Source: Elusimicrobiota bacterium (lineage in GTDB: Bacteria > Elusimicrobiota > Elusimicrobia > UBA1565 > UBA9628). From it: a stretch of 64,000 nt of DNA. The stretch is taken from NCBI GenBank assembly GCA_030696455.1, contig JAUYSH010000121.1, positions 10,078-74,077 on the forward strand, written 5' to 3'. Positions 717 through 13,389 of the stretch are shown here, piece after piece (the first letter of the stretch is position 1; each line of letters starts with the position of its first letter). Both the position numbers and the translations under genes were made by a program. The notes below the pieces were generated by a model, which had not been told where the DNA came from, made no database searches, and worked only from the letters and a program-made list of their open reading frames with translations.

Positions 717-2008
717 AGAAGAATCCCCAGCAGACCGACATGAAGAAGATCTTCGCCCGCGCGCGCCGGTCGCTCGTCGGCGGCGTCAACTCGCCGGTGC
801 GCGCCTTCAAATCGGTCGGCGGCACGCCCCTGTTCGTGCACGGCGGCTCCGGCGCGTACCTTCACGCCGACGACGGACGCTCCTACGTGGACTTCTGCCT
901 GTCCTGGGGGCCGCTGATGTTCGGCCATGCCCGGCGCGAGCTCGTCCGCGCGGCGCAGGACGCGATCTCGCACGGCTCCACGTTCGGCGCGGCGACGCAG
1001 GCCGAGGTGAACCTGGCCGAGCGCATTAAAAAGGCCCTGCCGTCGATCGAGCTGCTGCGCATGACCAGCTCGGGGACCGAGGCGGGCATGAGTGCCGCGC
1101 GCGCGGCGCGCGCGTTCACCGGGCGCGATCTGATCATCAAGTTCGCGGGATGTTATCACGGTCACTTCGACAGCCTTCTGGTCGCCGCCGGCTCGGGCGC
1201 CACGACCTTGGGCGTCCCCGACTCGGCGGGCGTGCCGAAGAGCTTCGCGGCAACCACCATCGTTTTGCCGTTTAATGATTTAACGGCGGTCGAGAACGCG
1301 TTTAAGAAAAACAAAGGCAAAATCGCGGCGATCTTCGTCGAGCCCATTCCGGCGAACATGGGAGTCGTTTTCCCGGCCAAAGGCTTTCTGGAAGGACTGC
1401 GAAGGATTACGAAGAGAGAAAAGGCATTACTTATTTTCGACGAAGTCATCACGGGATTTCGTGTCTGCTACGGCGGCGCGCAGACCCTCTACAAGATCAA
1501 GCCCGACCTCACCATCCTCGGCAAGATCATCGGCGGCGGCATGCCGATGGGCGCCTACGGCGGGCGGCGCGACGTCATGTCGGTGATCTCCCCCGAGGGC
1601 CCGGCCTATCAGGCGGGCACGCTCTCGGGCAACCCGGTCGCGGTCGCGGCCGGCAGGGCGATGCTCGACCTGCTGGCGTCCGAGGCGCCGTACAAGCGCA
1701 TGGCCCAGCTCGCCGACTACATGTGCGAGGGCCTGCGGCGCGTGTCCCTGCGCGCGGGGGTGCCCCTGCGCATACAGTCGGTCGGCTCGATGTTCACGCC
1801 CTTCTTCCTCGAGGGCGAGGTCACCGATTACGACTCGGCGATGAAGGCCGACAAGGCCGCCTACGGCCGCTACTTCCACGGCATGCTCAAGCGCGGCGTC
1901 TACCTGCCGCCGGCGCAGTGGGAGGCGGCTTTCGTCTCCTACGCGCACACGGATAAAGAGCTCAACATCGCCATCGGCGCCGCCTCCGAAGCGTTTAAGG
2001 AGATCTAG
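704..2008 (+). CDS. hemL: Glutamate-1-semialdehyde 2,1-aminomutase
   Basis: ATG at 704 lies inside the long ORF 101..2008; the upstream part of that ORF is an Arg-rich shadow of hem[25 protein letters not shown].., class-III aminotransferase motifs and ..[11 protein letters not shown].. (PLP Lys) are present. It overlaps the hemB stop by 13 nt. Confidence 0.92.
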
Positions 2009-2018
2009 CGCCCAAACC

Positions 2019-2060
2019 GCGAAGGACTATCCTTAAGGATAGTCCTTCGCTATTTATATT
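2019..2060 (+). terminator. Intrinsic terminator after hemL
   Basis: Perfect 14-bp stem GCGAAGGACTATCC (2019-2032), TTAA loop, GGATAGTCCTTCGC (2037-2050), followed by the T-rich tract TATTTATATT. Confidence 0.75.
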
Positions 2061-2066
2061 CAGGCG

Positions 2067-2114
2067 TTGACAAGGTTGCGCCCTTCCTCAATACTATGGC
2101 GTCCCGGACGCCAT
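2067..2114 (+). promoter_or_regulatory. Sigma70-like promoter plus leader hairpin for the 2116-7884 cluster
   Basis: Perfect -35 TTGACA at 2067-2072. The -10 candidates are AATACT (2090-2095, 17-bp spacer) or TACTAT (2092-2097, 19-bp spacer). An 8-bp hairpin ATGGCGTC-CCG-GACGCCAT (2096-2114) ends 1 nt before the ATG at 2116. No Shine-Dalgarno sequence is visible. Confidence 0.5.
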
Positions 2115-2115
2115 T

Positions 2116-2982
2116 ATGAGCGAACAGCCCTCCCCAGAGCCGCAAAAGTCCAAAGCCGAAGCCGCGCCCAAGGCGGCGTCCTCGCCTCACGGGGCCGACC
2201 CCTCCCGCGCGCAGGCCTATGTCCCTCTTCCGGGCCAGCCCAAGCCGGGGGGGCGGGGGGTTTTGGTTCTCGCCGCTTTGATCGCGGCCGGAGCGCTGGC
2301 CGGCACGGCCCTGCATTTCCGGGAGCCCCCGCCGCCGCCCACGGTTGTCGTCGCCGCCGCCGAGGAGAAGGTCCTCACGGTCACCGACGCCGATCTCAGC
2401 CTCGCCGCCACGGAGCGCGTGCGAAATTCCGCCGCCCCCGCGCCGGGAGGCGCCCCGGCCACGATGGGCACCGGCGGCCCGGCCGGATCGATGGGCTCCG
2501 GCGACGCGTCGCCCGCGCCGCCGGCTCCCGCCGCGCAGGCCCCGGCCCCCGCCCCGGCCTCTCCCGCGGCGGCGCCTGCGGCGGAGAACCGGGCATCCTC
2601 GCCGCTTCCGGTCGCGCCGCCCGAGCTGATCTCGCCGGCGGCCACGGCGCCGCAGTCCGCGCTGACCGCCCGCGGGCAGGAGGCGGTGCGCTCCGATGGG
2701 TACTCGATCTTCTCCATGCGGCTCATCGACGACGTCGCCCAGGACGGCGACGTGGTGCAGATCTCCATCGACGGCGTGCCCATGTCGTTTCTGTCCTTGA
2801 CCCACGCCGGCGCCACGCTCGAGATACCGCTCAAGAAAGGCGAGTCCCACCGGATCACGGTCACGGCCGTGCGCGACGGCACCGGCGGCGTCACTTTGGG
2901 CCTGCAGACCTCGGCGGGGATGATCCTCTCGCGCAACATGGCCGTCGGCGAAAGCGACAGCTGGACCATCGACTACAAGTGA
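2116..2982 (+). CDS. Bitopic membrane protein of unknown function: N-terminal cytoplasmic tail, one TM helix, long Pro/Ala-rich linker, about 95-aa beta-rich C-terminal domain
   Basis: The 288-aa ORF has a TM segment VLVLAALIAAGALAGTAL and a low-complexity run PAPPAPAAQAPAPAPASPAAAPAA. The C-terminal part (YSIFSMRLIDDVAQDGDVVQISIDGVPMSF..ITVTAVRDGTGGVTLGLQT..) has ordinary composition. I recognise no family. Confidence 0.7.
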   Translation: MSEQPSPEPQKSKAEAAPKAASSPHGADPSRAQAYVPLPGQPKPGGRGVLVLAALIAAGALAGTALHFREPPPPPTVVVAAAEEKVLTVTDADLSLAATERVRNSAAPAPGGAPATMGTGGPAGSMGSGDASPAPPAPAAQAPAPAPASPAAAPAAENRASSPLPVAPPELISPAATAPQSALTARGQEAVRSDGYSIFSMRLIDDVAQDGDVVQISIDGVPMSFLSLTHAGATLEIPLKKGESHRITVTAVRDGTGGVTLGLQTSAGMILSRNMAVGESDSWTIDYK

Positions 2983-4091
2983 AATCAAGCCAGCCGCACC
3001 CGTTGTTCATCCTGATGGCGGTGGTGGCCGTCGGAGGCGCGCTGATCGCGGTCAAGCAGCGCGCGCCCGAGGTCCTGCCCTGGATCTTCGCGCTGGCCGG
3101 GGTCGGGATGCTCTACCGCTTCTGGGCGATCCAGAAGGAGGACGCGGCCGCGCGCGGCGAGGGGCTCGTCGACCACGAGGTCCTGCGCAAGATGCGCCTG
3201 CGCGACTACGGCTCGTGGATCAAGGAGAACGTGCGCGGCCAGGATCCCGCGGTGGACCTGATCGTGCACAGCGTGCAGCGCGGCCTCGAGCTCGCGCGTC
3301 CCGGGCGCAGCCTCGGCTCGTTTTTGCTCGTCGGCCCGACCGGCACGGGCAAGACCTTCCTGGCACAGATGACCGCGATGGCGCTGTGGCCCGAGAAGGA
3401 GCCGGTCGTCCTGCGCATGAACCAGTTCAAGGACCCCCACGATCTCCAGGGTCTGCTCGGGGCGGCCGGCGGCGCTGAAACGGGCTCGCTGACGGGGGCG
3501 CTGCTCGAGGACCCTTACCGCGTCGTGCTTCTCGATGAGATCGACAAGTGCCACCCCGACGTGCTCCACGGCCTCTTCGAGGCGCTCGACGGCGGGCGCG
3601 TGCGCGACCGCTCCAGCTCGAAGATGGTGGACTTCAGCGGCTGCGTGTTCTTCGCGACCTGCAACGCGGGTGCGGAGCGCCTGCGCGCGCTCAAGGCCGA
3701 CGACGCCGCCGCCTTCGCGGCGCGCGCGCGCGACGCCCTGATGAAGGAGGCCGCCTTCGAGAAGGCCTTCCTCGCCCGCTTCAGCGAGATCATCCTGATG
3801 GACGCGCTGGCGCCCCTGCACATCGCCGAGATCGCCTGCCTGCAGATCGCCAAGCAGTGGCGCGAGCAGGGCATCGTGGTGAGCTACCTCTCGCCGGAGC
3901 TGCTCGCGCGCGCGGTCGCGCTCAACGCCGAGTTCGGGGAGTACGGCGTGCGCCAGCTCACCCGCTGCCTGCGCCGCCTCATGGACCCGCTGCTCGAGGA
4001 GGCCCGCAGGGGCGGTCGCAGCGCCGTGTCGCTGGGCCTCGACCCGGCCACCGGCGGCGCGGTCCTGGGGCTCGCCAAGGAGCGGCCGTGA
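2979..4091 (+). CDS. Membrane-anchored single-domain AAA+ ATPase, ClpA/ClpB D2-like (AAA_2 plus D2-small-like)
   Basis: The GTG at 2979 overlaps the upstream TGA (GTGA); an alternative ATG lies at 3015. Two N-terminal hydrophobic helices are present (LFILMAVVAVGGALIAV, VLPWIFALAGVGMLYRFWAI). Walker A is GPTGTGKT (3333-3356), Walker B VVLLDEIDK, sensor FFATCN, and the C-terminal region has EYGVRQLTRCL. Confidence 0.85.
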   Translation: MKSSQPHPLFILMAVVAVGGALIAVKQRAPEVLPWIFALAGVGMLYRFWAIQKEDAAARGEGLVDHEVLRKMRLRDYGSWIKENVRGQDPAVDLIVHSVQRGLELARPGRSLGSFLLVGPTGTGKTFLAQMTAMALWPEKEPVVLRMNQFKDPHDLQGLLGAAGGAETGSLTGALLEDPYRVVLLDEIDKCHPDVLHGLFEALDGGRVRDRSSSKMVDFSGCVFFATCNAGAERLRALKADDAAAFAARARDALMKEAAFEKAFLARFSEIILMDALAPLHIAEIACLQIAKQWREQGIVVSYLSPELLARAVALNAEFGEYGVRQLTRCLRRLMDPLLEEARRGGRSAVSLGLDPATGGAVLGLAKERP

Positions 4092-5383
4092 AGAAAAGGC
4101 TCCTCAAGGACGGCTGGTTTCAAATGTTCGCCGCCGTCGGGGGCGTCGCCTGCGTCGTTTCGATTCTGGGCGGAGTTTCGACGCGCCACGCCCCGCCGAG
4201 CCCGGCCCCCGCCGTCGCCGCGCCGAGCGCGCCCTCGATGGGGGCCAAGGCCACCGCCCTTCCCGAGCCGGCCGCGGCGGTCGCCGCCGCGGAAGGGGAG
4301 ATCACCCCGCCGGCGCCGTCTTCTTCGGATCTGGCCACTTACAGCGGCGTGAACGCCGCCTCCCGCTCCCCCGGGGCGCTGATCGCGCCTCCGGCCGCGT
4401 CTCCTCCTCCTCCTCCGCAACCCGCTCCGCAGATCACCTTGACGGGCACGGGCGTGGGCAACACCGCGGGCATCGTCGGCGCTCCTCCAGGCGGCGGAAC
4501 GTTGAGCGGGCTGCTCAGCGGCCTGATGGGGTCGTCGGCGCGGGCGCCGCTCGCGGCGGCGCTGCCGGCCCTCCCGCCGCTCTTTCGCGTCGCCCCGTCG
4601 CGCCCCGGAATCTTCACGGTCGGCCCGGCCGGGACGCCGGGAGCGGACACCTCGAGCCTGCGCGACGCGGTGTACAGCGCGTCGAACGGCGACCTCATTC
4701 TCATCAAGCCGGGAACCTACGAGGGGCCGGTCGAGGTCCTGAACAAATCGGTGCGCATCCGCGGCACGGGGGGCTATTCCGCCGCCGTCGTCGTCCGGTG
4801 GACCGGCCCCGGCGCCACGATCAGCGTGCGCAACGGGACGCTCGATCTGGAGAAGATCCGCCTCGAGCGGGGCGCCTACCAGGAATATCAGAAAGCCGAG
4901 CCGGGCGGGGCCCTCTACGCCGTCGCCTCGACCTTGTCTTTTCGCGGGGTGGAGCTCGACAGCGGCGATATCGCGGCGCCGCCGCTGATCGTCGAGCAGG
5001 GCGACAATCCCGCGCGCGTCGAGGCGGAGGACTCCCGGATCAGCACCATCGGGGCCGGCGTGCTCATCCGCGGGCCGGTGAAGGCGAGCTTCACGCGCAT
5101 GACCTTTCACGCCACCAGCCGGCCGCTCGCGGCCTGGATCGACGCGGCCGTTTCCCTGCGGGACTGCGTCTTCCTCGATACCGGTTCCCCGTCGGTGATC
5201 CACGCCTACGAGGGAGCGCGCGTGGCCGTGACCGGCAAGCAGAAGCCCTATGTCAGCGGGGTCCGCGGCGCCGAGGCGACCGGGTTCGAGGACAGCTTCG
5301 GGGGAGCGCGGACCGCGGCCGCGGGCGGCGGCTTCGCGCGCGATATTTTTAGACGCGGGCGCAAGCCGGGAAGCTTTCCATGA
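4088..5383 (+). CDS. Bitopic membrane protein with Pro/Ala-rich linker and a putative right-handed beta-helix ectodomain
   Basis: The GTG at 4088 overlaps the upstream TGA (GTGA). The TM segment is WFQMFAAVGGVACVVSILGGV, followed by a P/A/S-rich linker. The segment ..SLRDAVYSASNGDLILIKPGTYEGPVEVLNKSVRIRGTGG.. resembles the start of NosD/pectin-lyase-type beta-helix proteins. Confidence 0.75.
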   Translation: MKKRLLKDGWFQMFAAVGGVACVVSILGGVSTRHAPPSPAPAVAAPSAPSMGAKATALPEPAAAVAAAEGEITPPAPSSSDLATYSGVNAASRSPGALIAPPAASPPPPPQPAPQITLTGTGVGNTAGIVGAPPGGGTLSGLLSGLMGSSARAPLAAALPALPPLFRVAPSRPGIFTVGPAGTPGADTSSLRDAVYSASNGDLILIKPGTYEGPVEVLNKSVRIRGTGGYSAAVVVRWTGPGATISVRNGTLDLEKIRLERGAYQEYQKAEPGGALYAVASTLSFRGVELDSGDIAAPPLIVEQGDNPARVEAEDSRISTIGAGVLIRGPVKASFTRMTFHATSRPLAAWIDAAVSLRDCVFLDTGSPSVIHAYEGARVAVTGKQKPYVSGVRGAEATGFEDSFGGARTAAAGGGFARDIFRRGRKPGSFP

Positions 5384-5393
5384 GGAGAAAACG

Positions 5394-6395
5394 GTGAGCG
5401 ATCTTTCCAAGATGACGGACTGGGACAAGCTTCAGGGCATGCTCAAGGCCTCGGCCTCGGAGAGCCAGCGCTTCACGATCGACGAGGCCAAGCTCGTCGC
5501 GCACCTGCGCTCGCGCGTGAAAGGGCAGGACGAGATCATCGACGACGTCGCCCGCCTCATCCGTCTGAGCTGGATGAAGGACAAGCGCACCCGGCCGGTG
5601 TGCAACCTGCTCTTTCTCGGTCCCACGGGCACGGGCAAGACCGAGCTCGCCAAGGCGATCTGCGAGCACCTCTTCGGCGACGAGCAGGCCCTCCTGCGCT
5701 TCGACTGCTCCGAGCTCGCCAGCCCCGAGATGGGCAAGACCCGCCTGACCGGCTCCTCCTCGGGCTACGTCGGCTCCGAGCAGGGCGGCCAGCTCACGCG
5801 ACCGATGTTCGCCAACCCCAAGCGCGTCGTGCTCTTCGACGAGATCGAGAAGGCCCATCCGGTCATCTTCGACCTTCTCCTGCAGGTCATGGGGGAAGGG
5901 CGCCTGACCGAGCAGGGCAGCGGCAAGACCGCGGACTTCACGCAGGCGGTCATCATCATGACGAGCAACTCGCTCGCCGACTCGATGGGCAAGGCCGTGC
6001 AGGGCCTCACCGACTATCCCCGCATCATGAACGCGATCAAGACCTTGCTGGCCGAGAGCGGGACCTTCCGTCCCGAGATTTTGGGCCGCGTGGACAAGGT
6101 CTATCTCTTCAAGCCCCTGTCGGGCATGCAGGTCGCGGAGATCTCCCTGCTCAAGATCTCCAAGCTCGGCCAGGAGTACGGCGTCGAGACGCATTTCGTC
6201 GCGCCCGAGCTTATCATTCAAGCCCTCGAGGCGAACATCCGCGTCAGCAAGTTCGGCATCCGCGAGCTCGAGCGGATCCTGTTCGACCGCTACGCGTCCT
6301 ACTTCGTCGAGGCCCGCGCCGCCAACGCCAAGTCCGTCTCCTTCGAGGTCGCCGACGACGGAACCATCGTCTGCAAGCGCGACCCGGCCCCTTAG
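5394..6395 (+). CDS. Soluble single-domain AAA+ ATPase, ClpA/ClpB D2-type
   Basis: GTG at 5394 lies 5 nt after GAGGAG (5383-5388). Walker A is GPTGTGKT (5619-5642), the pore-loop motif is SGYVGSEQGG, Walker B VVLFDEIEKAH, with LLQVMGEGRLT, sensor IIMTSN and the D2-small-like FGIRELERIL. Confidence 0.88.
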   Translation: MSDLSKMTDWDKLQGMLKASASESQRFTIDEAKLVAHLRSRVKGQDEIIDDVARLIRLSWMKDKRTRPVCNLLFLGPTGTGKTELAKAICEHLFGDEQALLRFDCSELASPEMGKTRLTGSSSGYVGSEQGGQLTRPMFANPKRVVLFDEIEKAHPVIFDLLLQVMGEGRLTEQGSGKTADFTQAVIIMTSNSLADSMGKAVQGLTDYPRIMNAIKTLLAESGTFRPEILGRVDKVYLFKPLSGMQVAEISLLKISKLGQEYGVETHFVAPELIIQALEANIRVSKFGIRELERILFDRYASYFVEARAANAKSVSFEVADDGTIVCKRDPAP

Positions 6396-6447
6396 GCCGT
6401 GTTCGGATGCGTATGGACGATGGCGGCCGTCTTCGGCGGGTCTGTCC

Positions 6448-6477
6448 TTGGCGGGACGGCTCGTGGAGTCGTATAAT
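6448..6477 (+). promoter_or_regulatory. Candidate promoter with leaderless geometry for the C14 lipoprotein gene
   Basis: -35 TTGGCG (6448-6453), 18-bp spacer, perfect -10 TATAAT (6472-6477), then 6 nt to the ATG at 6484. No SD is present. Confidence 0.45.
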
Positions 6478-6483
6478 CATCGC

Positions 6484-7884
6484 ATGAAGATATTTTCGGC
6501 GCTCGGACTTGTTTCGCTCGTCCTGCTTGCCGCCGGATGCATGCCCTCTGTTCCCAAACGCACCGACGCCCTGAGCATGCTGACCGGCCCGGGCATGAGC
6601 AAGAACCGCGAGGTTAAAAGGCTGAGGCTGGCGATGATGTTTTCAGAGAATTCGCGGAACGCCGCCGCCTATCTCCAAAAGGCGACCGGTTCGGTGACCG
6701 GGCAATACGGAGGCGTCAACGACGTCTCTTTTTTCAAGTCCATCATCGACTCGCTTGAGAAGGTTTTCGCGTCCGTGGTCACGGTCGAAAGTCTTGAGCA
6801 GGCGAAGTCCGAAGGCGCTCATTTGGCCGCGGTCGTGGATATCTACGCGAAAGTCGGAACGACTTCTTTTGTGATGACGACGGCGGATATCGCCGCCGCC
6901 TTCCAGTCTCTGGATGGGGCGCCGATCTCCGTGGTGCGCGGGAGGGGGGCTTTCCGCGTTCCTTACCCTAATTTCACTTTGCGGTGGACCGAGGCGAGCG
7001 CGGCGGCGGTGGACAGCTTCACGCTCGCGCTCTCGACCAACGCCGAACTGGCCTCTTTTGCGGCTGCGGCGGCGCCCGTCGCGGCCGGCCCCGCTCCGGC
7101 AGCGCCTATTGCTCCGGTTAAAACCTATCAGTCTGACGTGGAGGTTCCCGCCTTCCGCCTGCCCGAGGATACGTCCAAGTTCGCCCTTGTCGTCGGCATA
7201 GAGAGGTACGCCTCCCTGCCTTCCGCCGAGCACGCGGTTCGGGACGCCAGGGCGATGAAGACCCACCTGCTCGCGGCGGGATATCCTGAGCGCAATATCG
7301 TGTTGTTGACGGATCAACAGGCGGGCAAGTCGGGGCTCGAGAAGTATCTCGACGCCTGGCTTCCCAAGAACACCGATGAAAAGTCCTCGGTGCTTGTCTA
7401 CTTCTCCGGGCATGGCGCCCCGAACCCCGATGACGATCAGGCCTATCTCGTTCCTTGGGACGGAGACCCGAAGTTCTTGGCGAACACGGGTTATCCCGTC
7501 AAGCGCCTATATGAGCGCCTCAACGCTCTCAAGGCCAAGCGCGTACTTGTCGCGATCGACGCCTGCTTCTCGGGTACGGGCGGACGCTCGGTCCTCGCCA
7601 AGGGCACGCGACCTTTGATCGCCAAAGTGGACGTAGGCGCGGGCGCCGTCGGCCGCGTGCAGGCCCTCACCGCTTCGGCCTCGGATGAGATTACCGGCAC
7701 CGATGAGGAGTCCGGTCACGGCCTCTTTACCTATCAGTTGCTGAAAGGCCTCTCCGTGAAAAAAGGGAAGGCGACGTTTAAGGAGCTCTACAACTACCTG
7801 ACGCCCAAGGTCCGTGACGCGGCCAGGCGCGACAACCGCGACCAGACGCCCCAGTTGATCGGGGATGGAGACGCTTCTCTGTAA
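6484..7884 (+). CDS. Exported lipoprotein with a C-terminal caspase-fold (peptidase C14, metacaspase/orthocaspase-like) domain
   Basis: Signal peptide plus lipobox MKIFSALGLVSLVLLAAGC. The C14 core has FALVVGIERY.., VLVYFSGHGA (His codon 7411-7413) and VLVAIDACFSG (Cys codon 7564-7566). An N-terminal region of about 200 aa is unassigned, and an Ala/Pro linker precedes the C14 domain. Confidence 0.88.
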   Translation: MKIFSALGLVSLVLLAAGCMPSVPKRTDALSMLTGPGMSKNREVKRLRLAMMFSENSRNAAAYLQKATGSVTGQYGGVNDVSFFKSIIDSLEKVFASVVTVESLEQAKSEGAHLAAVVDIYAKVGTTSFVMTTADIAAAFQSLDGAPISVVRGRGAFRVPYPNFTLRWTEASAAAVDSFTLALSTNAELASFAAAAAPVAAGPAPAAPIAPVKTYQSDVEVPAFRLPEDTSKFALVVGIERYASLPSAEHAVRDARAMKTHLLAAGYPERNIVLLTDQQAGKSGLEKYLDAWLPKNTDEKSSVLVYFSGHGAPNPDDDQAYLVPWDGDPKFLANTGYPVKRLYERLNALKAKRVLVAIDACFSGTGGRSVLAKGTRPLIAKVDVGAGAVGRVQALTASASDEITGTDEESGHGLFTYQLLKGLSVKKGKATFKELYNYLTPKVRDAARRDNRDQTPQLIGDGDASL

Positions 7885-7918
7885 TGCAATAACGTCGCTT
7901 CGCGGGAGTGGCGCCGGT

Positions 7919-8617
7919 TTAGCGCCGGCGGCCGGTCGCGCGCAGCAGGCTCATGAACAGGTTGATGAAGTCGAGGTACAAGGTCAGCGCGCCGCGGATC
8001 GCCTCCTTCGTGTCCTCGTCGGTGCCCGCGTTGCCGATGACGTTCATCTTCTTGATCTTCTGCGTGTCGTAGGCGGTGAGGCCGACGAAGATCAGGATGC
8101 CGAGGTAGGAGACCGCCATTTCGACGGCGGAGCTGCGCACCCACCAGTTGACGACGGAGGCGAGGATGATGCCGATCAGGCCCATCATGCAGAAGTTGCC
8201 GATCGAGGTGAGGTCGGTCTTCGTCGTGTAGCCGTAGAGGCTCATCGCGCCGAACATGCCGCCGGTGAGGAAGAAGGTCGTCGCGATCGAGGCGTTCGTG
8301 TAGATGAGGAAGATCACCGAGATCGTGACGCCGGTCAGGGCCGAGTAGAAGAGGAAGGCGAAGCGCGCGGTGCCGACCTCCATCGTCTTGATCCAGCCGG
8401 CCAGGGCGACGACCAGGCCGAGCTGGGCGATCAGCAGGCCGTAGAAGAGCATCTTGTTCTGCACGAGGGCCATGATCATGCGCGGATCGGAGGCCATGTA
8501 CAGCGCGCAGGAGCCGGTGACCGCGAGGCCGACGCTCATCCAGGCGTAGACCTTCTGGATGAACTCGCGCGACTCGGTCTCGGCGGCGGACATCAGGCCC
8601 GGAGGGGAATAGCTCAT
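7919..8617 (-). CDS. Bax inhibitor-1/YccA family inner-membrane protein
   Basis: Seven hydrophobic segments and the family-typical ..REFIQKVYAWMSVGL.., ..FLTGGMFGAMSLYGYTTKTDL.., ..GLTAYDTQKIK.., ..GALTLYLDFINLF... I prefer the ATG at 8617 (MSYSPP..) over the GTG at 8674 because of the promoter geometry described in the next feature. Confidence 0.88.
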   Translation of the reverse strand: MSYSPPGLMSAAETESREFIQKVYAWMSVGLAVTGSCALYMASDPRMIMALVQNKMLFYGLLIAQLGLVVALAGWIKTMEVGTARFAFLFYSALTGVTISVIFLIYTNASIATTFFLTGGMFGAMSLYGYTTKTDLTSIGNFCMMGLIGIILASVVNWWVRSSAVEMAVSYLGILIFVGLTAYDTQKIKKMNVIGNAGTDEDTKEAIRGALTLYLDFINLFMSLLRATGRRR

Positions 8618-8623
8618 GGGGAC

Positions 8624-8652
8624 AGTGTAGGACCCCGCGCCCGCTTCGTCAA
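8624..8652 (-). promoter_or_regulatory. Promoter (leaderless geometry) of the BI-1 family gene
   Basis: On the minus strand: -35 TTGACG (8652-8647), exactly 17-bp spacer, -10 TACACT (8629-8624), then 6 nt to the ATG at 8617. Confidence 0.5.
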
Positions 8653-8684
8653 TGGTTCCCCAATCCAAGTTCACGGAGTTTGGG

Positions 8685-8704
8685 GACTCGCACCGGTGCG
8701 AGTC
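8685..8704. repeat. Perfect 20-bp palindrome GACTCGCACCGGTGCGAGTC in a divergent intergenic region
   Basis: Read directly; the sequence is exactly self-complementary. It lies 33 bp upstream of the -35 of the BI-1 promoter and about 115 bp upstream of the -35 of the S8 protease promoter. Confidence 0.85.
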
Positions 8705-8817
8705 ATTCGACTGTTCCCGGAAGCAGCGGCGGCGGGCGCCATGTCCCCGTTCGTTTATCTTGTGATAATCCTGCCTCCCGGCGTCCCCCAGCCCCGTGGA
8801 CTTGGAGTACGCCTCCC

Positions 8818-8846
8818 TTGACAGGCCCAGGAGGCGGGGTTACACT
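8818..8846 (+). promoter_or_regulatory. Sigma70-like promoter of the S8 protease gene
   Basis: Perfect -35 TTGACA (8818-8823), 17-bp spacer, -10 TACACT (8841-8846). The leader carries SD GGAGGA (8859-8864) 6 nt before the ATG at 8871. Confidence 0.55.
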
Positions 8847-8870
8847 GGCAGGGACGCGGAGGACCCCTCT

Positions 8871-10892
8871 ATGTTCGCCCCTCGCTTCCTGCTGATGCTG
8901 TCCCTCGTCGCGTTCCCGCTCGGCGCCCGCGCCGGGACGGAGACTGCGCCGATCCTGGACCTTCCTATCGTCAAGGTCCCGGGCCCGCCCTTGGGCCCGG
9001 ACGTCGAGCCTTCGGTCGTCGTCACGCCGGCCACGGCCGGGGCGCTGGAGAAGGCCGGCTGGAAGCTGCGGGCCGACGGCGGACTCGAGCGCGTGGAGGG
9101 CGAGGACAAAGGCCTGATCCCCCCGAGCTACCTGGAGATGGCCGGGTTCGAATGGCGGGACGGCGTTCTGGCGTACGGCGAGTCGCCCGAGGCGGTGCCG
9201 CACGACAAGTTCTTCCCGATCCTCAAGGGGCTGTCCTCGTTCACCACGGCCGCGCGCGTCGAGCCCGCGAAGGCCGGCGCGGCGTTGGCCGCCTGGGGCC
9301 TTCCCCCGAGCGTGGACGGCCGGCGGTTGTACAATCCGAACGGCGACGCGACCTACTTCGGGATCATGCTTCACTACCTGCTCGCGCCGAAGCCGGACCA
9401 GGCCGCGAAGCTCGGCGTGGAGCGGAGCATCGACGTCCTCAACCGCCTGACCCGCGCCCACGAGCAGGCGTTTCGCAAGCAGGCGCCCGACATCGCCCAG
9501 GTCCAGATCGACACAGCGCGGCTGACCTTGTTCTCGCCGCCCCGAGGCGGGGAGACCCCCCTGGGCTCGCCGGCGCTCAAGGCGCGCCCCGATCCGGCGG
9601 CGATGCTCAAGGGCTATAAGGCGCAGCTCGAGGCCGACGCCGCCTCGGCGCTGAAGGACGGGGACGAGCTCCGGCGCAAAGACAGCGTCGAGGCCCTGGC
9701 GGTGCTCAATAATCTGGAGCGACAGCGCCCGCACGGGCGGCTCGACCTCGGAGCGGTTCCGGAGCCCGGCAAGGAAAAGCCCGCCGAGCCCGCCCCCGCC
9801 GGGCCCGCGCCGCCCGGGAAGCCGAAGCTCGAGCCTTACGCGCCCCTCGCCTCGGGATTGCCCGGCCTGCTGCGCGTGCTTGATCGCGTCAACGGGACCC
9901 CTCTGACCCCCGACCAGCAGGAGAACCTGATCAAGTCGTTCCCGATGGGCGATCTGGTCTGGCGCATGGGCGCGCAGGACCTGTGGCGCCAGGGCCTGAC
10001 CGGCAAGGGCGTGAAGGTCGCGGTCATCGACGAAGGCATCGCCCGGCACCCGGAGCTGGAGGGCGCGGTGAAGGAGCGGGTCAACCTGACCGCCCAGCGC
10101 GGCAAGGGCGCCGTCGGCTCGCACGGCACGCACGTCGCCGGCATCATCCACGCGCTGGCCCCCGACGCCGAGCTGCGCGGCTACGCCGTGTTCGCCGGCG
10201 ACGACGGCAACAGCGCTCTGCGGGAGAACCCGGAGCAGCCGATCATCGACGCGATCCACCGCGCCGTCAAGGACGGCAACCAGATCATCAACATGAGCCT
10301 CGGCTCCGGGGACGGCCCCGCGTCCCAGCTCGCGCGCGTCGTCGAGGAGTACGCGAGCAAGGGAGTGATCTTCCTGGTCGCGGCCGGCAATTCCCGTCAC
10401 TACAGCGGCGGCATCGACGCCCCCTCCTCGGCGCCGTCGGCGATCACGGTGGGCTCGCTCAACTCCGCGGGGCGCATGTCCGACTTCTCCAGCTACGGCA
10501 AGCGCTTCAACGCCCGCGAGCTGACCGAGGTGGTCAAGGACGTGTTCATGGCCCCCGGCACGAACATCGTGTCGGCGATGCCGTCCCAGGCGTACTACGC
10601 CGGCAAGAAGCCCGATCCGGAGTACGAGGCGATGAGCGGCACCTCGATGGCGACCCCGGTCATGTCCGGGGTCAGCGCCCTGCTCGTCCAGGACATGGGC
10701 CGCATGACCCTCGTTCCGAGCCCTCTCGAGATGGCCCAGCGGCTGAAGTCCGCGCTCACGGTGAGCTCGACCCAGCTGGACTTCAACACTTTGCCGGAGG
10801 GGGGGACCTTCCTGCAGCCGTTCTTCGTCGTGCGCCCGGTTCAGGCGCTCGAGGCGCTGCGGACCTCGGCCGTGCCGGTCGCGGGGAAGTAG
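8871..10892 (+). CDS. Secreted subtilisin-like serine protease (peptidase S8) with a long unassigned N-terminal region
   Basis: Signal peptide MFAPRFLLMLSLVAFPLGARAG. Catalytic motifs are VAVIDEGI (Asp), GSHGTHVAGII (His) and SGTSMATPVMSG (Ser). About 370 aa precede the catalytic Asp with no motif I recognise. Confidence 0.9.
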   Translation: MFAPRFLLMLSLVAFPLGARAGTETAPILDLPIVKVPGPPLGPDVEPSVVVTPATAGALEKAGWKLRADGGLERVEGEDKGLIPPSYLEMAGFEWRDGVLAYGESPEAVPHDKFFPILKGLSSFTTAARVEPAKAGAALAAWGLPPSVDGRRLYNPNGDATYFGIMLHYLLAPKPDQAAKLGVERSIDVLNRLTRAHEQAFRKQAPDIAQVQIDTARLTLFSPPRGGETPLGSPALKARPDPAAMLKGYKAQLEADAASALKDGDELRRKDSVEALAVLNNLERQRPHGRLDLGAVPEPGKEKPAEPAPAGPAPPGKPKLEPYAPLASGLPGLLRVLDRVNGTPLTPDQQENLIKSFPMGDLVWRMGAQDLWRQGLTGKGVKVAVIDEGIARHPELEGAVKERVNLTAQRGKGAVGSHGTHVAGIIHALAPDAELRGYAVFAGDDGNSALRENPEQPIIDAIHRAVKDGNQIINMSLGSGDGPASQLARVVEEYASKGVIFLVAAGNSRHYSGGIDAPSSAPSAITVGSLNSAGRMSDFSSYGKRFNARELTEVVKDVFMAPGTNIVSAMPSQAYYAGKKPDPEYEAMSGTSMATPVMSGVSALLVQDMGRMTLVPSPLEMAQRLKSALTVSSTQLDFNTLPEGGTFLQPFFVVRPVQALEALRTSAVPVAGK

Positions 10893-11290
10893 TGGCCTAC
10901 CGGATCAAGCGCATAGACCCGTTCTGGCACAAGAACCCCGCGGTGCCCGCCGTCGCGGCCGTGGCCGCGGTCGTCGCGCTGGCCGCCGCGCAGTCCGGCC
11001 GGGGGGCGGTCGCCGCGGCGGCCGGGCTCGCCTTCGGCGCGGCGGTGTTCCTGGCGACGAAGCCCGCCCTGTCCGGCGTGTTCGCGGTGTTCGGCCTCCT
11101 GGCGGGCGTGGTGACCTTCCTCGCGGGGCCGAGCGCGGGGCTCACGCCGGCGATGCGCGCGCTCGCGACCGCCGCCTTCAGCCTCTTCTACATGGTACTC
11201 ATGGACGGCGTCGTGCTCGCCGTCGCCGCGATCTATAATCAGTTCACCCGCGCGGGCCTGCGCGGGCTCAGCCTGCGCCTCGAGGAGTAG
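10892..11290 (+). CDS. Small Ala/Gly-rich polytopic membrane protein, hypothetical
   Basis: The GTG at 10892 overlaps the TAG of the S8 gene by 1 nt. Three to four hydrophobic segments are visible (AVAAVAAVVALAAA, LAFGAAVFLA, VFAVFGLLAGVVTFLAG, ALATAAFSLFYMVLMDGVVLAVAAIY). The start codon is uncertain. Confidence 0.55.
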   Translation: MAYRIKRIDPFWHKNPAVPAVAAVAAVVALAAAQSGRGAVAAAAGLAFGAAVFLATKPALSGVFAVFGLLAGVVTFLAGPSAGLTPAMRALATAAFSLFYMVLMDGVVLAVAAIYNQFTRAGLRGLSLRLEE

Positions 11291-11322
11291 CGCGTCCGTT
11301 GTAACAGTTCGGTGACTGGGCC

Positions 11323-11351
11323 TTGCCCGGCGCGCGACGCACGGCTAAGCT
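11323..11351 (+). promoter_or_regulatory. Weak candidate promoter with leaderless geometry
   Basis: -35 TTGCCC (11323-11328), 17-bp spacer, -10 TAAGCT (11346-11351), then 6 nt to the ATG at 11358. No SD is present. Confidence 0.3.
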
Positions 11352-11357
11352 TAAGGT

Positions 11358-11759
11358 ATGCGAAAACACGATCTTTCGGTCAAGCCCCGGATACTCGTCG
11401 CCGACGAGACGCGCGACCTCACCGACGTCTACGGCTACCTGTTCACTTCGGCCGGCTACCGCGTCCTGCGGGCCTACGACGGCCTCACCGCGGCGGCGCT
11501 CGCGAAGGTGGTCAAGCCGGAGATCGCGGTCCTGAGCCAGCATCTGCCGGGCCTGACGGGGCTCGGCCTGCTGCGCGAGCTGCGCGAGGCGGGCGCGCGC
11601 ACGAAGGTCATCATCACCAGCGGCATGGACGGCTTCTCCGCGCTGGCCGAGCGCGCGCTGGGGGAAGGCGCGAAATACTGCGTTCGCCAGCCCTGCCCCG
11701 CCGAGCGTCTCCTGCGGATGGCGTCGGCGCTGCGCGCTACATCTGCTCCGGGGCGCTGA
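11358..11759 (+). CDS. Stand-alone receiver (REC)-like domain protein with a non-canonical phospho-acceptor position
   Basis: CheY-like layout: ILVADETRD.., ..PEIAVLSQHLPGLTG.., ..KVIITSG... Ser (codon 11535-11537) sits where Asp is expected, and the conserved Lys-Pro reads VRQP. Confidence 0.8.
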   Translation: MRKHDLSVKPRILVADETRDLTDVYGYLFTSAGYRVLRAYDGLTAAALAKVVKPEIAVLSQHLPGLTGLGLLRELREAGARTKVIITSGMDGFSALAERALGEGAKYCVRQPCPAERLLRMASALRATSAPGR

Positions 11760-13389
11760 CGCCCAGGAGCTCGAGGCCCTCGCGGATGGCGTCGCGCACG
11801 CCCGCGATGAGCAGCAGGCGCGCCCGGCCCTGCTCCGGGTCCTCGGCGGAGACGACGGGGCACTTCTCGTAGAAAGGGTGGAACAGGCCGGCCAGCTCCA
11901 TGAGGTAGTTGGCGAGCGGATGCGGCGAGAGCAGGCGCTCGCTGTCGAGCAGCACCTCGGGGAACCACGCGAGCTTGTTGAGCAGCGCCTTCTCCTCGGG
12001 CGCCGTCAGCCACTTCGCGTTCGGCATCGGCAGCTGCGCGCCGGCCGGATGCAGTCCCGTCTCCGCGGCCTTGCGGAAGATCGAGCAGATGCGGGCGTGC
12101 ACGTACTGCACGTAGAACACCGGGTTCTCGCTCGACTGCTTCTTGGCCAGCTCGAGGTCGAAGTTCAGGTGGCTGTCGGGCGTGCGCAGGGCGAAGAAGA
12201 AGCGGCAGGCGTCCTTGCCGACTTCATCAAGGATTTCCCGAAGGGAAATGAAGGTGCCGGCGCGCTTGGACATCTTCACCGCTTCGCTGCCGCGGAAGAG
12301 GTGGATGAGCTGGTGGACGATCGCGTGATAGCTCTCGGCGGGCTTGCCCAGCGCCGCGATCGCGGCCCGCATGCGCGGCACGTAGCCGTGATGGTCGGCG
12401 CCGAAGATGTCGATGACCCGCTCGAAGCCCCGGTCGTACTTGTCCTTGTGGTAAGCGATGTCGGGCAGGAAATAGGTCGGCTTGCCGGTGCTCTTGACGA
12501 GCACGCGGTCCTTGTCGTCGGTGGAGCCCTCGGCGGACTGCGTGCCGAGCCACACGGCTCCGTCCTTCTCGAAGACCATGCCGCGACCCTTGAGGAACTC
12601 GAGCGTCCTGGGCACGGCCCCGGAGGCGAACAGTTCGCTCTCCAGGTACCAGCGGTCGAAATGAGCGTCGAACACCTTCATGTCGTCCTTGTGGGAGGCG
12701 AGCAAGGTGTCCATCGCGTAGCGTCCCCACTGCGCCGCGTCCCACTTTTCCTTCTCCGCGGGAGCCAGGGCGGCGAGGTCGACGAGGTACTCGCCTTGAT
12801 AGCCTTTCTCCGGGACCTTGGCGTCCTCGCCCTTCGACTGCCGGTAGCGCGCCATGATCGATTCGCCGAGCAGTATGACGCGGTCCCCGCCGTCGTTGAC
12901 GTAGTACTCGGCCTTGGCATCGCGGCCGAGGCGCTTCATGATGCGGACCAGGCTGTCTCCGAGGGTCGCGCCGCGTCCCGACGCCATGTGAAGAGGGCCG
13001 GTGGGATTGGCGGACACGAACTCCACCAATACTTTCGTTTTAGGCCCGCCTTCGTCCTCCCCGTAGATTTTCGGCGCCAAGGTGATGGCCTTGAGATTGG
13101 CGCACAGCGCGGTCTGCTTGAGCACGATGTTGACGAAGCCGGGCGGCGCCGGCGCGGCGCTCTCGACCTCCGGGACCCGGGCCAGGTGCTCGGCCAGGGA
13201 CTTGGCCAATTCGACCGGATTTTTCTTGGCGGCTTTGGCGGCGGCGAGCGGCCACGGCAGGGAGAGGTCGGCCTTCACGTGGGCGGGCGGCGCGTTGACC
13301 GGCAGGTTCTCGGGCACCGGCACGCCCGCGGCGCCCGCCCATTTGCGGGCCTCGTGGGCCAGCTTTTTGCGTATCGCGGCGATGATCAT
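11737..13389 (-). CDS. argS: Arginine--tRNA ligase
   Basis: 550 aa with ..FVSANPTGPLHMASGRG.. (HIGH-type), ..AVKMSKRAGT.. (KMSK), and a C-terminal anticodon-binding region ending ..GVSAPEQM. Confidence 0.93.
   Translation of the reverse strand: MIIAAIRKKLAHEARKWAGAAGVPVPENLPVNAPPAHVKADLSLPWPLAAAKAAKKNPVELAKSLAEHLARVPEVESAAPAPPGFVNIVLKQTALCANLKAITLAPKIYGEDEGGPKTKVLVEFVSANPTGPLHMASGRGATLGDSLVRIMKRLGRDAKAEYYVNDGGDRVILLGESIMARYRQSKGEDAKVPEKGYQGEYLVDLAALAPAEKEKWDAAQWGRYAMDTLLASHKDDMKVFDAHFDRWYLESELFASGAVPRTLEFLKGRGMVFEKDGAVWLGTQSAEGSTDDKDRVLVKSTGKPTYFLPDIAYHKDKYDRGFERVIDIFGADHHGYVPRMRAAIAALGKPAESYHAIVHQLIHLFRGSEAVKMSKRAGTFISLREILDEVGKDACRFFFALRTPDSHLNFDLELAKKQSSENPVFYVQYVHARICSIFRKAAETGLHPAGAQLPMPNAKWLTAPEEKALLNKLAWFPEVLLDSERLLSPHPLANYLMELAGLFHPFYEKCPVVSAEDPEQGRARLLLIAGVRDAIREGLELLGVSAPEQM

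Follow-up and report, generated by a model that had tools for sequence, protein, structure and literature searches.

The M-domain of ClpB is the element that couples this disaggregase to DnaK, while human CLPB/Skd3 demonstrates that a lone NBD2-type ring can act as an unfoldase; to our knowledge it is one of few single-ring ClpB-NBD2-type ATPases that work alone. FtsH, Msp1/ATAD1 and Bcs1, in which a cytoplasmic AAA+ ring sits at the membrane surface behind N-terminal transmembrane (TM) anchor(s), act on membrane proteins via exposed tails, with FtsH and Msp1 pulling their substrates by unstructured cytoplasmic tails. Here we analyse a 64,000-nucleotide stretch of DNA from an Elusimicrobiota bacterium (contig JAUYSH010000121.1 of assembly GCA_030696455.1), referred to as the window. 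Four of its genes, g1 to g4, are a conserved unit, i.e. an operon encoding two ATPases (g2, membrane-anchored, and g4, soluble) and two bitopic envelope proteins (g1 and g3). A fifth gene, g5, encodes a caspase-fold lipoprotein and was assigned to the same cluster in an earlier note made from the sequence alone; it is an unrelated gene, inserted in a variable downstream slot and lying outside the module. The five genes are as follows.

2116..2982, + strand: g1, bitopic protein of 288 aa (from the reading frame, hydropathy and motif positions)
2979..4091, + strand: g2, membrane-anchored single-module AAA+ protein of the ClpB/ClpC D2 type, 370 aa
4088..5383, + strand: g3, bitopic protein of 431 aa (from alignments, AlphaFold2 and Foldseek)
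5394..6395, + strand: g4, soluble single-module AAA+ protein of the ClpB D2 type, 333 aa
6484..7884, + strand: g5, exported caspase-fold (Peptidase C14) lipoprotein of 466 aa

Conservation of the four-gene module

Related loci were collected by two routes, exact-protein lookup of g4 homologues and a metagenome scan with an alignment of the g4 C-terminal region that avoids the Walker motifs, the latter giving 80 loci, in which this region is 49-98% identical. The five window proteins were compared with all stop-to-stop open reading frames (ORFs) of the collected loci by iterative hidden Markov model searches. The comparison covers 82 related loci; upstream of g4, 31 of them extend for at least 3.5 kb, and downstream of it 49 extend for at least 1.5 kb. 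A scan of a genome collection with a full-length g4 alignment, relying on Walker A/B patterns, returned 80 loci, all of them ordinary ClpB/ClpC and none with the module.

Linkage of g2 to g4 was found in all 31 loci with sufficient upstream sequence, in the order g2-g3-g4 in 27, g4-g1-g2 in three and g2-g4 in one. In most loci the gene directly 5' of g2 encodes either a g1 homologue or a shorter protein that keeps the g1-type cytoplasmic motif described below and the TM helix. The window itself has the arrangement by which we define the module, g4 linked to a TM-anchored g2, with a bitopic protein bearing the g1-type motif encoded before g2 and one bearing the g3-type motif after it, and this pattern recurs in other loci. 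Independent gene calls with precomputed Pfam assignments list, in order, a protein without a Pfam match, AAA_2, Beta_helix and AAA_2, in surroundings that are otherwise unrelated. In the window a GTGA start/stop overlap joins g1 to g2 (2979-2982) and g2 to g3 (4088-4091); 4-nt overlaps at both junctions recur in L001, the g4 of which is 85% identical to that of the window, and the g2/g3 overlap recurs in L002 (~61% g4 identity). The g3 stop codon (5381-5383) is followed by a GAGGAG Shine-Dalgarno sequence (5383-5388) and the GTG start of g4 (5394), leaving a 10-nt spacer between the genes.

The module occurs in Elusimicrobiota and, by cluster look-ups of the more distant g4 orthologues, in two other phyla, Verrucomicrobiota and Gemmatimonadota. 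The verrucomicrobial carriers (Chthoniobacterales, Candidatus Udaeobacter) have the standard gene order, while that in Gemmatimonadota is g4-g1-g2. Compared with the window proteins, relatives of g4 are 56-94% identical, those of g2 42-93%, those of g1 24-73% and those of g3 21-63%, a gradient in keeping with a constrained motor whose outward-facing partners evolve fast. The module is mostly vertically inherited, and in the window clade it stands in a housekeeping context.

Some loci depart from the standard arrangement. In L001, a complete genome (CP096137.1), g1 and g3 are split across frames (6715-7670 and 8236-9990) and both ATPases are intact, reflecting either assembly indel errors or pseudogenisation of the bitopic partners. 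L088 (7804-10414), from the wider clade of the window, has no g3 between g2 and g4, which are separated by a gap of ~370 nt; its g1 is cut down to the motif and TM helix and its g2 pore loop is degenerate (GSADGNGG). In L002, the place of g1 is taken by a type IV pilin-like protein (7042-7572) with the N_methyl motif GFTLIE. Clusters for an aa3-type cytochrome oxidase and a bc complex lie beside the module in L002 (12903-18641), an Elusimicrobiota locus, and in L163 (10469-16546), which is probably verrucomicrobial; a link with respiratory complexes was considered, hemB and hemL flanking the module in the window, but, having been seen in two lineages among the 28 loci of at least 12 kb, the association was treated as chance.

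The caspase-fold gene and the downstream slot

The assignment of g5 as a lipoprotein with a C14 His/Cys dyad holds. It matches Peptidase_C14 (7e-15, 55.8 bits, gathering cut-off 21.4), and has both dyad motifs (YFSGHG, aa 306-311, and DACFSG, aa 359-364) and the lipobox LLAAGC; its N-terminal domain of ~210 aa has no assigned family, and a PDB sequence search with g5 gave no match. The caspase domain is nearest to the NCBIfam family 'caspase, EACC1-associated type' (NF047832; 1.5e-22, 80.2 bits, cut-off 140). In the EACC1-caspase two-gene system the caspase gene has a gene for a single-TM EACC1 protein on its 5' side (Kaur et al. 2020, PMC7159879). By contrast, the gene 5' of g5 is that for the ATPase g4, no EACC1 gene is present, and g5 is a lipoprotein.

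The original grouping of five genes stands for the two ATPases and two bitopic proteins, which form a conserved linked unit, but not for g5. None of the 82 related loci, 49 of them with at least 1.5 kb downstream of g4, gave a g5 homologue, even at phmmer E ≤ 10. The gene is missing from five close relatives, four of which retain the synteny hemB-hemL…BI-1…argS. In L083-L086, where g4 is 92-94% identical to that of the window, the order is hemB-hemL-g1-g2-g3-g4, then a slot, then BI-1 (on the opposite strand), a response regulator and argS, with no caspase gene in the slot (hemB falls beyond the contig end in one of the four); what the slot holds between g4 and BI-1 differs in each close relative. 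In the window, the g4 stop codon (6393-6395) and the ATG of g5 (6484) are separated by an 88-nt gap, within which lies the following element, absent from the earlier note.

6448..6477, + strand: promoter-like site TTGGCG-18-TATAAT, ending 6 nt 5' of the g5 ATG

This site is assigned to g5, not to the module. The TATAAT (ending at 6477) lies 6 nt from the start codon (6484) with no Shine-Dalgarno sequence between them, which suggests a leaderless g5 transcript. The GC content at third codon positions (GC3) of g5 is 0.76, compared with 0.87-0.96 in all ten neighbouring genes. Together, the lack of g5 in relatives, its own promoter-like site and its deviant GC3 indicate a lineage-specific insertion, probably acquired horizontally.

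These results bear directly on the proposal of a five-gene envelope or cell-fate machine in which g5 would be fed substrates, or be activated, by the ATPases and bitopic proteins. Co-transcription is possible in the window, since g5 follows g4 on the same strand after 88 nt and no terminator is predicted between them, so that read-through from g4 could occur; in the distant locus L002, moreover, a gene for a periplasmic Peptidase_MA_2 protein (11191-12063) begins at the g4 stop codon, its start overlapping the stop. However, the consistent lack of g5 homologues, the other cargo in the slot of syntenic relatives, and the separate promoter-like site and GC3 of g5 all speak against such a machine, as does the g5 sequence, which has a lipoprotein signal peptide and neither of the N-terminal motifs of the module. 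We therefore consider it highly improbable. The related suggestion in the earlier note of a device feeding an extracytoplasmic protease loses its basis because g5 lies outside the conserved unit; no protease family recurs as a neighbour of the module.

The paired ATPases

The positions of the functional elements in the two ATPases are as follows.

g2: hydrophobic helices, aa 7-25 and 33-49
g2: Walker A, aa 119-126
g2: shortened pore loop GAAGGAETGS without an aromatic residue, aa 161-170
g2: Walker B, aa 182-190
g2: sensor-1 N229, Arg finger R267, sensor-2 R325
g4: invariant N-terminal MTDW, aa 7-10
g4: Walker A, aa 76-83
g4: pore loop GYVG, aa 124-127
g4: Walker B, aa 145-153
g4: sensor-1 N192, Arg finger R232, sensor-2 R290

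Both proteins exceed the gathering cut-off of AAA_2 (PF07724; 27 bits) across the whole domain, g2 with 3.9e-27 and 95.8 bits (profile positions 2-166 of 166) and g4 with 2.1e-39 and 135.7 bits (1-165 of 166). The ClpB profile (TIGR03346) is matched by both over its second ATPase module alone (~558-825), at 203.7 bits for g4 and 134.5 bits for g2, the full-length cut-off of 1232 not being reached. Their matches to ClpA and ClpC are likewise confined to the second ATPase module. The two are paralogues with 29% identity, and an exact-sequence lookup of g4 found nothing on record.

ClpB NBD2 (E. coli ClpB residues 561-856, PDB 6oax) is the best sequence match of g4 (2e-51) and a top match of g2 (2e-34). 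The AAA_2 fold, Walker A and B, sensor-1, Arg finger, sensor-2 and a C-terminal small domain are common to the NBD2 of ClpB/Hsp104 and to both window proteins, and the Walker motifs of g2 are intact in every orthologue with a readable region. The GYVG pore loop of ClpB, by contrast, is shared by g4 only: an aromatic residue equivalent to E. coli Tyr653 is present in 70 of 70 g4 orthologues, compared with 13 of 41 for g2. A 4-residue deletion in the g2 loop is specific to the window clade, where the loop also lacks the aromatic. Unlike ClpB/Hsp104, g2 and g4 are single-module proteins (333-370 aa) without N-domain, NBD1 or M-domain, g2 is membrane-anchored, and both are encoded together with dedicated bitopic partners.

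Human CLPB/Skd3, which is also a lone NBD2-type module without NBD1, matches both g2 and g4 in the PDB sequence search. This mitochondrial intermembrane-space disaggregase has an N-terminal hydrophobic segment (PMC7343390). It differs from the module in being eukaryotic, in having an ankyrin-repeat substrate-binding domain, and in lacking a paired paralogue and operon partners. In its layout g2 is similar to FtsH, Msp1/ATAD1 and Bcs1; these, however, belong to the classical AAA clade rather than the Clp D2 type and have no soluble paralogue as partner. FtsH also carries an M41 protease domain, whereas g2 has no Peptidase_M41 match, and the best AAA family of g2 is AAA_2, not AAA (PF00004).

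The second hydrophobic stretch of g2 (residues 33-49) is weaker than the first, and the anchor may be either a hairpin of two TM helices or a single TM helix with an interfacial helix. Of the initial description of g2 as two TM helices plus an AAA+ domain, the AAA+ part is thus secure and the second TM helix uncertain; the description of g4 as a soluble AAA+ protein with the full ClpB-D2 motif set agrees with both the profile matches and the motif positions.

Several described systems built on related ATPases can be set aside. With respect to ClpA/ClpX, g4 is without a ClpP-docking loop, the counterpart of the ClpA IGL loop being the ClpB-like KAVQGLTDY rather than an IGL/IGF-type loop, and there is no ClpP-like ORF among the neighbours scanned with Pfam. 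Matches to ClpV/TssH (TIGR03345) reach 149.7 and 124.2 bits, with a cut-off of 885, and core genes of a type VI secretion system (T6SS) are absent from the neighbourhood. IetA matches g4 at 5e-4 over ~35 residues. A subtilase gene of family S8 downstream in the window was considered as an IetS-like partner and was rejected on scores (20.7 against NCBIfam IteS, cut-off 900), on gene position, being set apart from g4 by g5 and the opposite-strand BI-1, and on its patchy presence, as it is missing in three of four close relatives. Neither a ClpP-like peptidase, nor a secretion-system core gene, nor a nuclease was found among the neighbours tested, in accord with the first reading of the locus, which had also separated it from T6SS ClpV loci and IetAS.

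In being a standalone AAA_2-only protein, g4 resembles DolB and the PADLOC candidate PDC-M37B, ATPases of defence systems. An anti-phage or conflict system centred on standalone ClpB-like ATPases, with the fast-evolving surface proteins as sensors, would be compatible with the PADLOC matches of g4 (PDC-M37B, 7e-25; DolB, 1e-16), the rapid evolution of the extracytoplasmic partners and the variable cargo slot adjoining the module. The PADLOC matches are, however, limited to the generic AAA core. The DolB matches are partial (g4 1e-16, g2 3.6e-12) with no DolA (DUF6414) partner of the Dodola system, neither DolA nor any other partner model matches g1 or g3, and no nuclease or toxin effector accompanies the ATPases. 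The stable housekeeping synteny in the window clade and the 56-94% identity of g4 across three phyla are also unlike patchy, fast-turnover defence genes, and overall a role in defence seems quite improbable.

The bitopic envelope proteins

The regions of g1 and g3 are as follows.

g1: cytoplasmic tail with AYVPLP, aa 34-39 (nt 2215-2232)
g1: TM helix, aa 48-66
g1: conserved juxtamembrane motif VLTVTDADL..ATE, aa 86-102
g1: Pro/Ala linker, followed by an all-beta C-terminal domain, ~aa 195-288
g3: short cytoplasmic stub, with KDGWFQMF running into the TM helix (aa 7-31)
g3: Pro/Ala linker holding the conserved TLTGTGVGN motif, aa 117-131
g3: right-handed parallel beta-helix ectodomain, ~aa 165-405
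g3: basic C-terminal tail DIFRRGRKPGSFP

Hydropathy analysis gives each protein a single strong hydrophobic helix near the N terminus and, after it, a linker of 44-48% Pro plus Ala, and both are predicted to be signal-anchored envelope proteins with N-in/C-out topology. The hydropathy-based topology agrees with the original placing of both ATPases in the cytoplasm and of the partner domains outside it. For g1, the proposed architecture (TM helix, Pro/Ala linker and beta-rich ectodomain) was upheld but the linker is ~125 rather than ~150 aa; that for g3, ending in a beta-helix-like ectodomain, is matched by hydropathy, AlphaFold2 and Foldseek alike.

No match to g1 was found in Pfam, NCBIfam or PADLOC. 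Its C-terminal domain gave an all-beta AlphaFold2 model of low confidence (predicted local distance difference test, pLDDT, 65), because the alignment was two sequences deep, the homologue search with this domain having yielded one protein; Foldseek found nothing significant with the model. By exhaustive representative search, the g1 family comprises 337 clusters at 50% identity.

For g3 there was no match in Pfam or PADLOC, and in NCBIfam a weak, sub-threshold match to the NosD N-terminal region alone, though Pfam Beta_helix (PF13229) is on record for g3 orthologues. The AlphaFold2 model, from a 34-sequence alignment, has regular short strands over residues ~165-405 with block-mean pLDDT mostly >90 (88-99). 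Foldseek matched the model with probability 1.0 to YbhC/pectin methylesterases and PL6 lyases, and also to AlgE4, with low TM-scores. On this modelling we are confident that the ectodomain is a right-handed beta-helix at the level of fold, a generic fold that does not imply membership of an enzyme family. The basic C-terminal tail was considered as a universal sorting signal, a possibility rejected as the tail is confined to Elusimicrobiota clades.

The nature of the best structural matches, carbohydrate esterases, lyases and epimerases (YbhC, pectin methylesterases, PL6, AlgE4), and the weak NosD match, might be taken to indicate that g3 is an active beta-helix esterase, lyase or epimerase in periplasmic glycan processing, with the ATPases merely chaperoning its assembly. 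However, the low TM-scores reflect a generic fold, the g3 alignments show no obvious conserved catalytic triad or acid pair, and the columns that remain invariant when the distant L002 is included are mostly Gly, Pro or Ala, or belong to the N-terminal cap. In some lineages, furthermore, the beta-helix is swapped for Sel1-repeat or other ectodomains behind the same motif, making an enzymatic function of this kind improbable.

In overall layout, g1 and g3 are similar to TonB and TolA, with an N-terminal TM helix joined to a C-terminal globular domain by a Pro-rich linker that spans the periplasm and, as in TonB-ExbBD and TolA-TolQR, they are encoded with an energy-converting inner-membrane partner. 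There is no sequence similarity to those systems, however, and the partner is an ATP-driven AAA+ pair rather than a proton-driven stator. Neither OmpA-type nor TonB-box partners were identified.

Cytoplasmic motifs and exchangeable ectodomains

Two motifs mark the cytoplasmic N termini of the bitopic proteins; within the window they are confined to g1 and g3. The g1-type motif, AY(T/V/I)x(P/L/M)P with core AY(T/V)xxP, lies ~12-22 residues before the TM helix and is found across loci in the gene upstream of g2. It precedes the TM helix in 41 of 84 tailed members of the g1-domain family, as compared with 9.2 ± 2.8 in shuffled tails. The g3-type motif, [DNS]xW[FVLM][QIL] with core (D/N)xW(F/V)Q, runs into the TM helix and is conserved from Elusimicrobiota to Verrucomicrobiota.

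What follows the motifs is variable. In several loci, g1 is represented by a mini-g1 of ~100-118 aa (stop-to-stop) with motif and TM helix only, ~60 residues separating the motif from the C terminus. In one Elusimicrobiota clade, Sel1-repeat bitopic proteins with the g1-type motif are encoded 3' of g4, and the g3-type motif is present on non-beta-helix proteins encoded after g2 in L120, L154 and L149 (Gemmatimonadota-type loci and L149). Three of the four close relatives (L083, L084, L086) have, in the slot after g4, minus-strand genes for bitopic proteins that start with the g1-type motif: …GAYTAPP… in L083 and L084, MAYTSPP… and …SDAYISLP… in L086, with a TM helix after each.

L083 4602-5798, - strand: slot bitopic protein
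L084 6706-7905, - strand: slot bitopic protein
L086 10422-11963, - strand: slot bitopic protein
L086 11970-13142, - strand: slot bitopic protein

These proteins, of 390-510 aa, may be extra clients of the module. Besides a Pro/Ala linker they have DxDxDG-like stretches in a conserved C-terminal region, and they gave no convincing Pfam match.

The same slot encodes a secreted protein of 172-178 aa in L083 (5810-6325, - strand) and L085 (10486-11019, - strand), with a conserved VAIVHTHPD…PGPGDY sequence reminiscent of a metal-binding HxH motif and no Pfam match. Six remote members of the g1 C-terminal-domain family (P0311, P0355, P0357, P0364, P0380 and P0385) are without AYxxxP, their tails carrying DDIELPP or DDIDLPP, which hints at a second motif class, possibly for another partner system.

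Proposed mechanism

We tentatively propose, judging it a little short of an even chance, that the four-gene operon encodes a membrane-associated Hsp100-type machine acting on the cytoplasmic tails of bitopic envelope proteins. In such a machine, the soluble g4 would be a single-ring unfoldase of the ClpB-NBD2 type whose translocating pore is fully canonical, and g2 its paralogue, held at the inner membrane by the N-terminal hydrophobic hairpin, with an intact ATP site and a variable pore loop. A membrane complex may be nucleated by g2 and include the TM helices of g1 and g3; g1-type proteins have a long unstructured tail, bearing AY(T/V)xxP, which would recruit the g4 ring and then be engaged by it, and an ATP-driven pull on the tail would remodel, tension or extract the bitopic partner, much as membrane proteins are handled by FtsH and Msp1. 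Cytoplasmic ATP hydrolysis could so be coupled to periplasmic binding domains of the solenoid or beta-sandwich type (beta-helix, Sel1). The conserved 4-nt start/stop overlaps are an argument that the subunits co-assemble in fixed proportions.

Several considerations weigh against this proposal. It starts from observed gene content, conservation, motifs, folds and catalytic-motif state, but each step beyond these, from physical interactions through threading of the tail to the physiological role, is taken from linkage and motif conservation. Topology was assigned by hydropathy and the positive-inside rule. The cytoplasmic stub of g3, at ~10 aa, is too short for an AAA+ pore; threading would be limited to g1-type proteins at most. 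The pore loop of g2 is degenerate in most lineages, clouding the role of this ATPase, and translational coupling and the existence of mini-g1 proteins fit a structural subunit or adaptor equally as well as a substrate. Nearby genes encode neither a partner protease nor a recipient for extracted proteins.

Chief among the rivals is a static mechanotransmission complex like FtsEX or MacB, in which g1, g2 and g3 would be stable in the membrane with no polypeptide being threaded, and conformational changes of the AAA+ ring(s), powered by ATP and relayed via the TM helices, would switch the periplasmic beta-helix or Sel1 domains, thereby perhaps activating or releasing, for example, a partner that acts on cell wall or glycan. 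The short g3 stub and the degenerate g2 loop suit such a complex, as do subunits made in fixed proportions, mini-g1 proteins reduced to motif and TM helix, and ectodomains that are solenoid binding scaffolds. However, the pore aromatic conserved in every g4 orthologue and the complete ClpB-D2 set would be superfluous for a pure conformational switch, and the motif-bearing proteins, with their exchangeable ectodomains and with some of their genes on the opposite strand of a variable slot, look more like a family of clients than fixed subunits. On balance we regard static mechanotransmission as unlikely, and a pulling machine acting on g1-type tails remains our preferred interpretation.

Genomic context

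The nearest relatives of the window proteins are in Elusimicrobiota metagenome-assembled genomes, and the GC content of the window is 67.8%. Around the module in the window are hemB, hemL, BI-1 (opposite strand), an S8 peptidase gene, a response regulator gene and argS. The upstream features are as follows.

39-2008: haem-synthesis genes hemB and hemL, preceding the module in the window clade
2019..2050, + strand: intrinsic-terminator-like hairpin with a 14-bp stem (8 GC pairs), 4-nt loop and T-rich tail
2067..2095, + strand: sigma-70-type promoter-like site TTGACA-17-AATACT, 10 of 12 matches, ending 20 nt 5' of the g1 ATG

The hairpin ends hemL and sets the upstream boundary of the module. 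Promoter-like sites of this grade number four in 7 kb, where shuffled sequences lead one to expect 0.6. These two elements, together with the GTGA overlaps, the Shine-Dalgarno sequence with its 10-nt spacer and the 88-nt gap before g5, all lie where they had first been read. An Rfam scan of positions 1800-9000 found no RNA family.

The ORF of the S8 subtilase spans 8796-10892, its mechanically assigned start being the GTG at 8796. That translation really begins at nt 8871 (Met26) is suggested by a signal-peptide-like sequence starting there and by a promoter-like site at 8818-8846. Among the four close relatives only L084 has a copy of this gene.

Biological significance

A description of this module was found neither in the literature searched, the coverage of which is incomplete, nor in profile libraries, which accords with the initial view that the gene combination belongs to no characterised system. 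A bacterial membrane-anchored ClpB-NBD2-type ATPase with a soluble paralogue and dedicated envelope partners is apparently undescribed. Public annotations of these genes read 'ATP-dependent Clp protease ATP-binding subunit ClpA/B/C', 'AAA family ATPase' or 'hypothetical protein', and the labels naming a Clp protease ATP-binding subunit are misleading.

The broader idea of an energy-coupled envelope module is plausible. Its most specific form, that the AAA+ pair grips a shared AY(T/V)xxP handle and would represent the first case in bacteria of an Hsp100-type membrane dislocase or force transducer, is doubtful, standing well below an even chance. If true, it would imply quality control or turnover of periplasmic beta-helix and Sel1 proteins in a manner resembling endoplasmic-reticulum-associated degradation (ERAD) or Msp1 or, alternatively, an ATP-powered analogue of TonB/TolA that sends force across the periplasm.

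The good conservation of the module in three phyla suggests that it probably has a basic role in the envelope of organisms that are hard to study, its carriers including very abundant soil lineages, i.e. Candidatus Udaeobacter, Chthoniobacterales and Gemmatimonadota. The conserved cytoplasmic motifs, borne by proteins with exchangeable ectodomains, make the extraction or pulling of envelope proteins by Hsp100-type ATPases a testable proposition.

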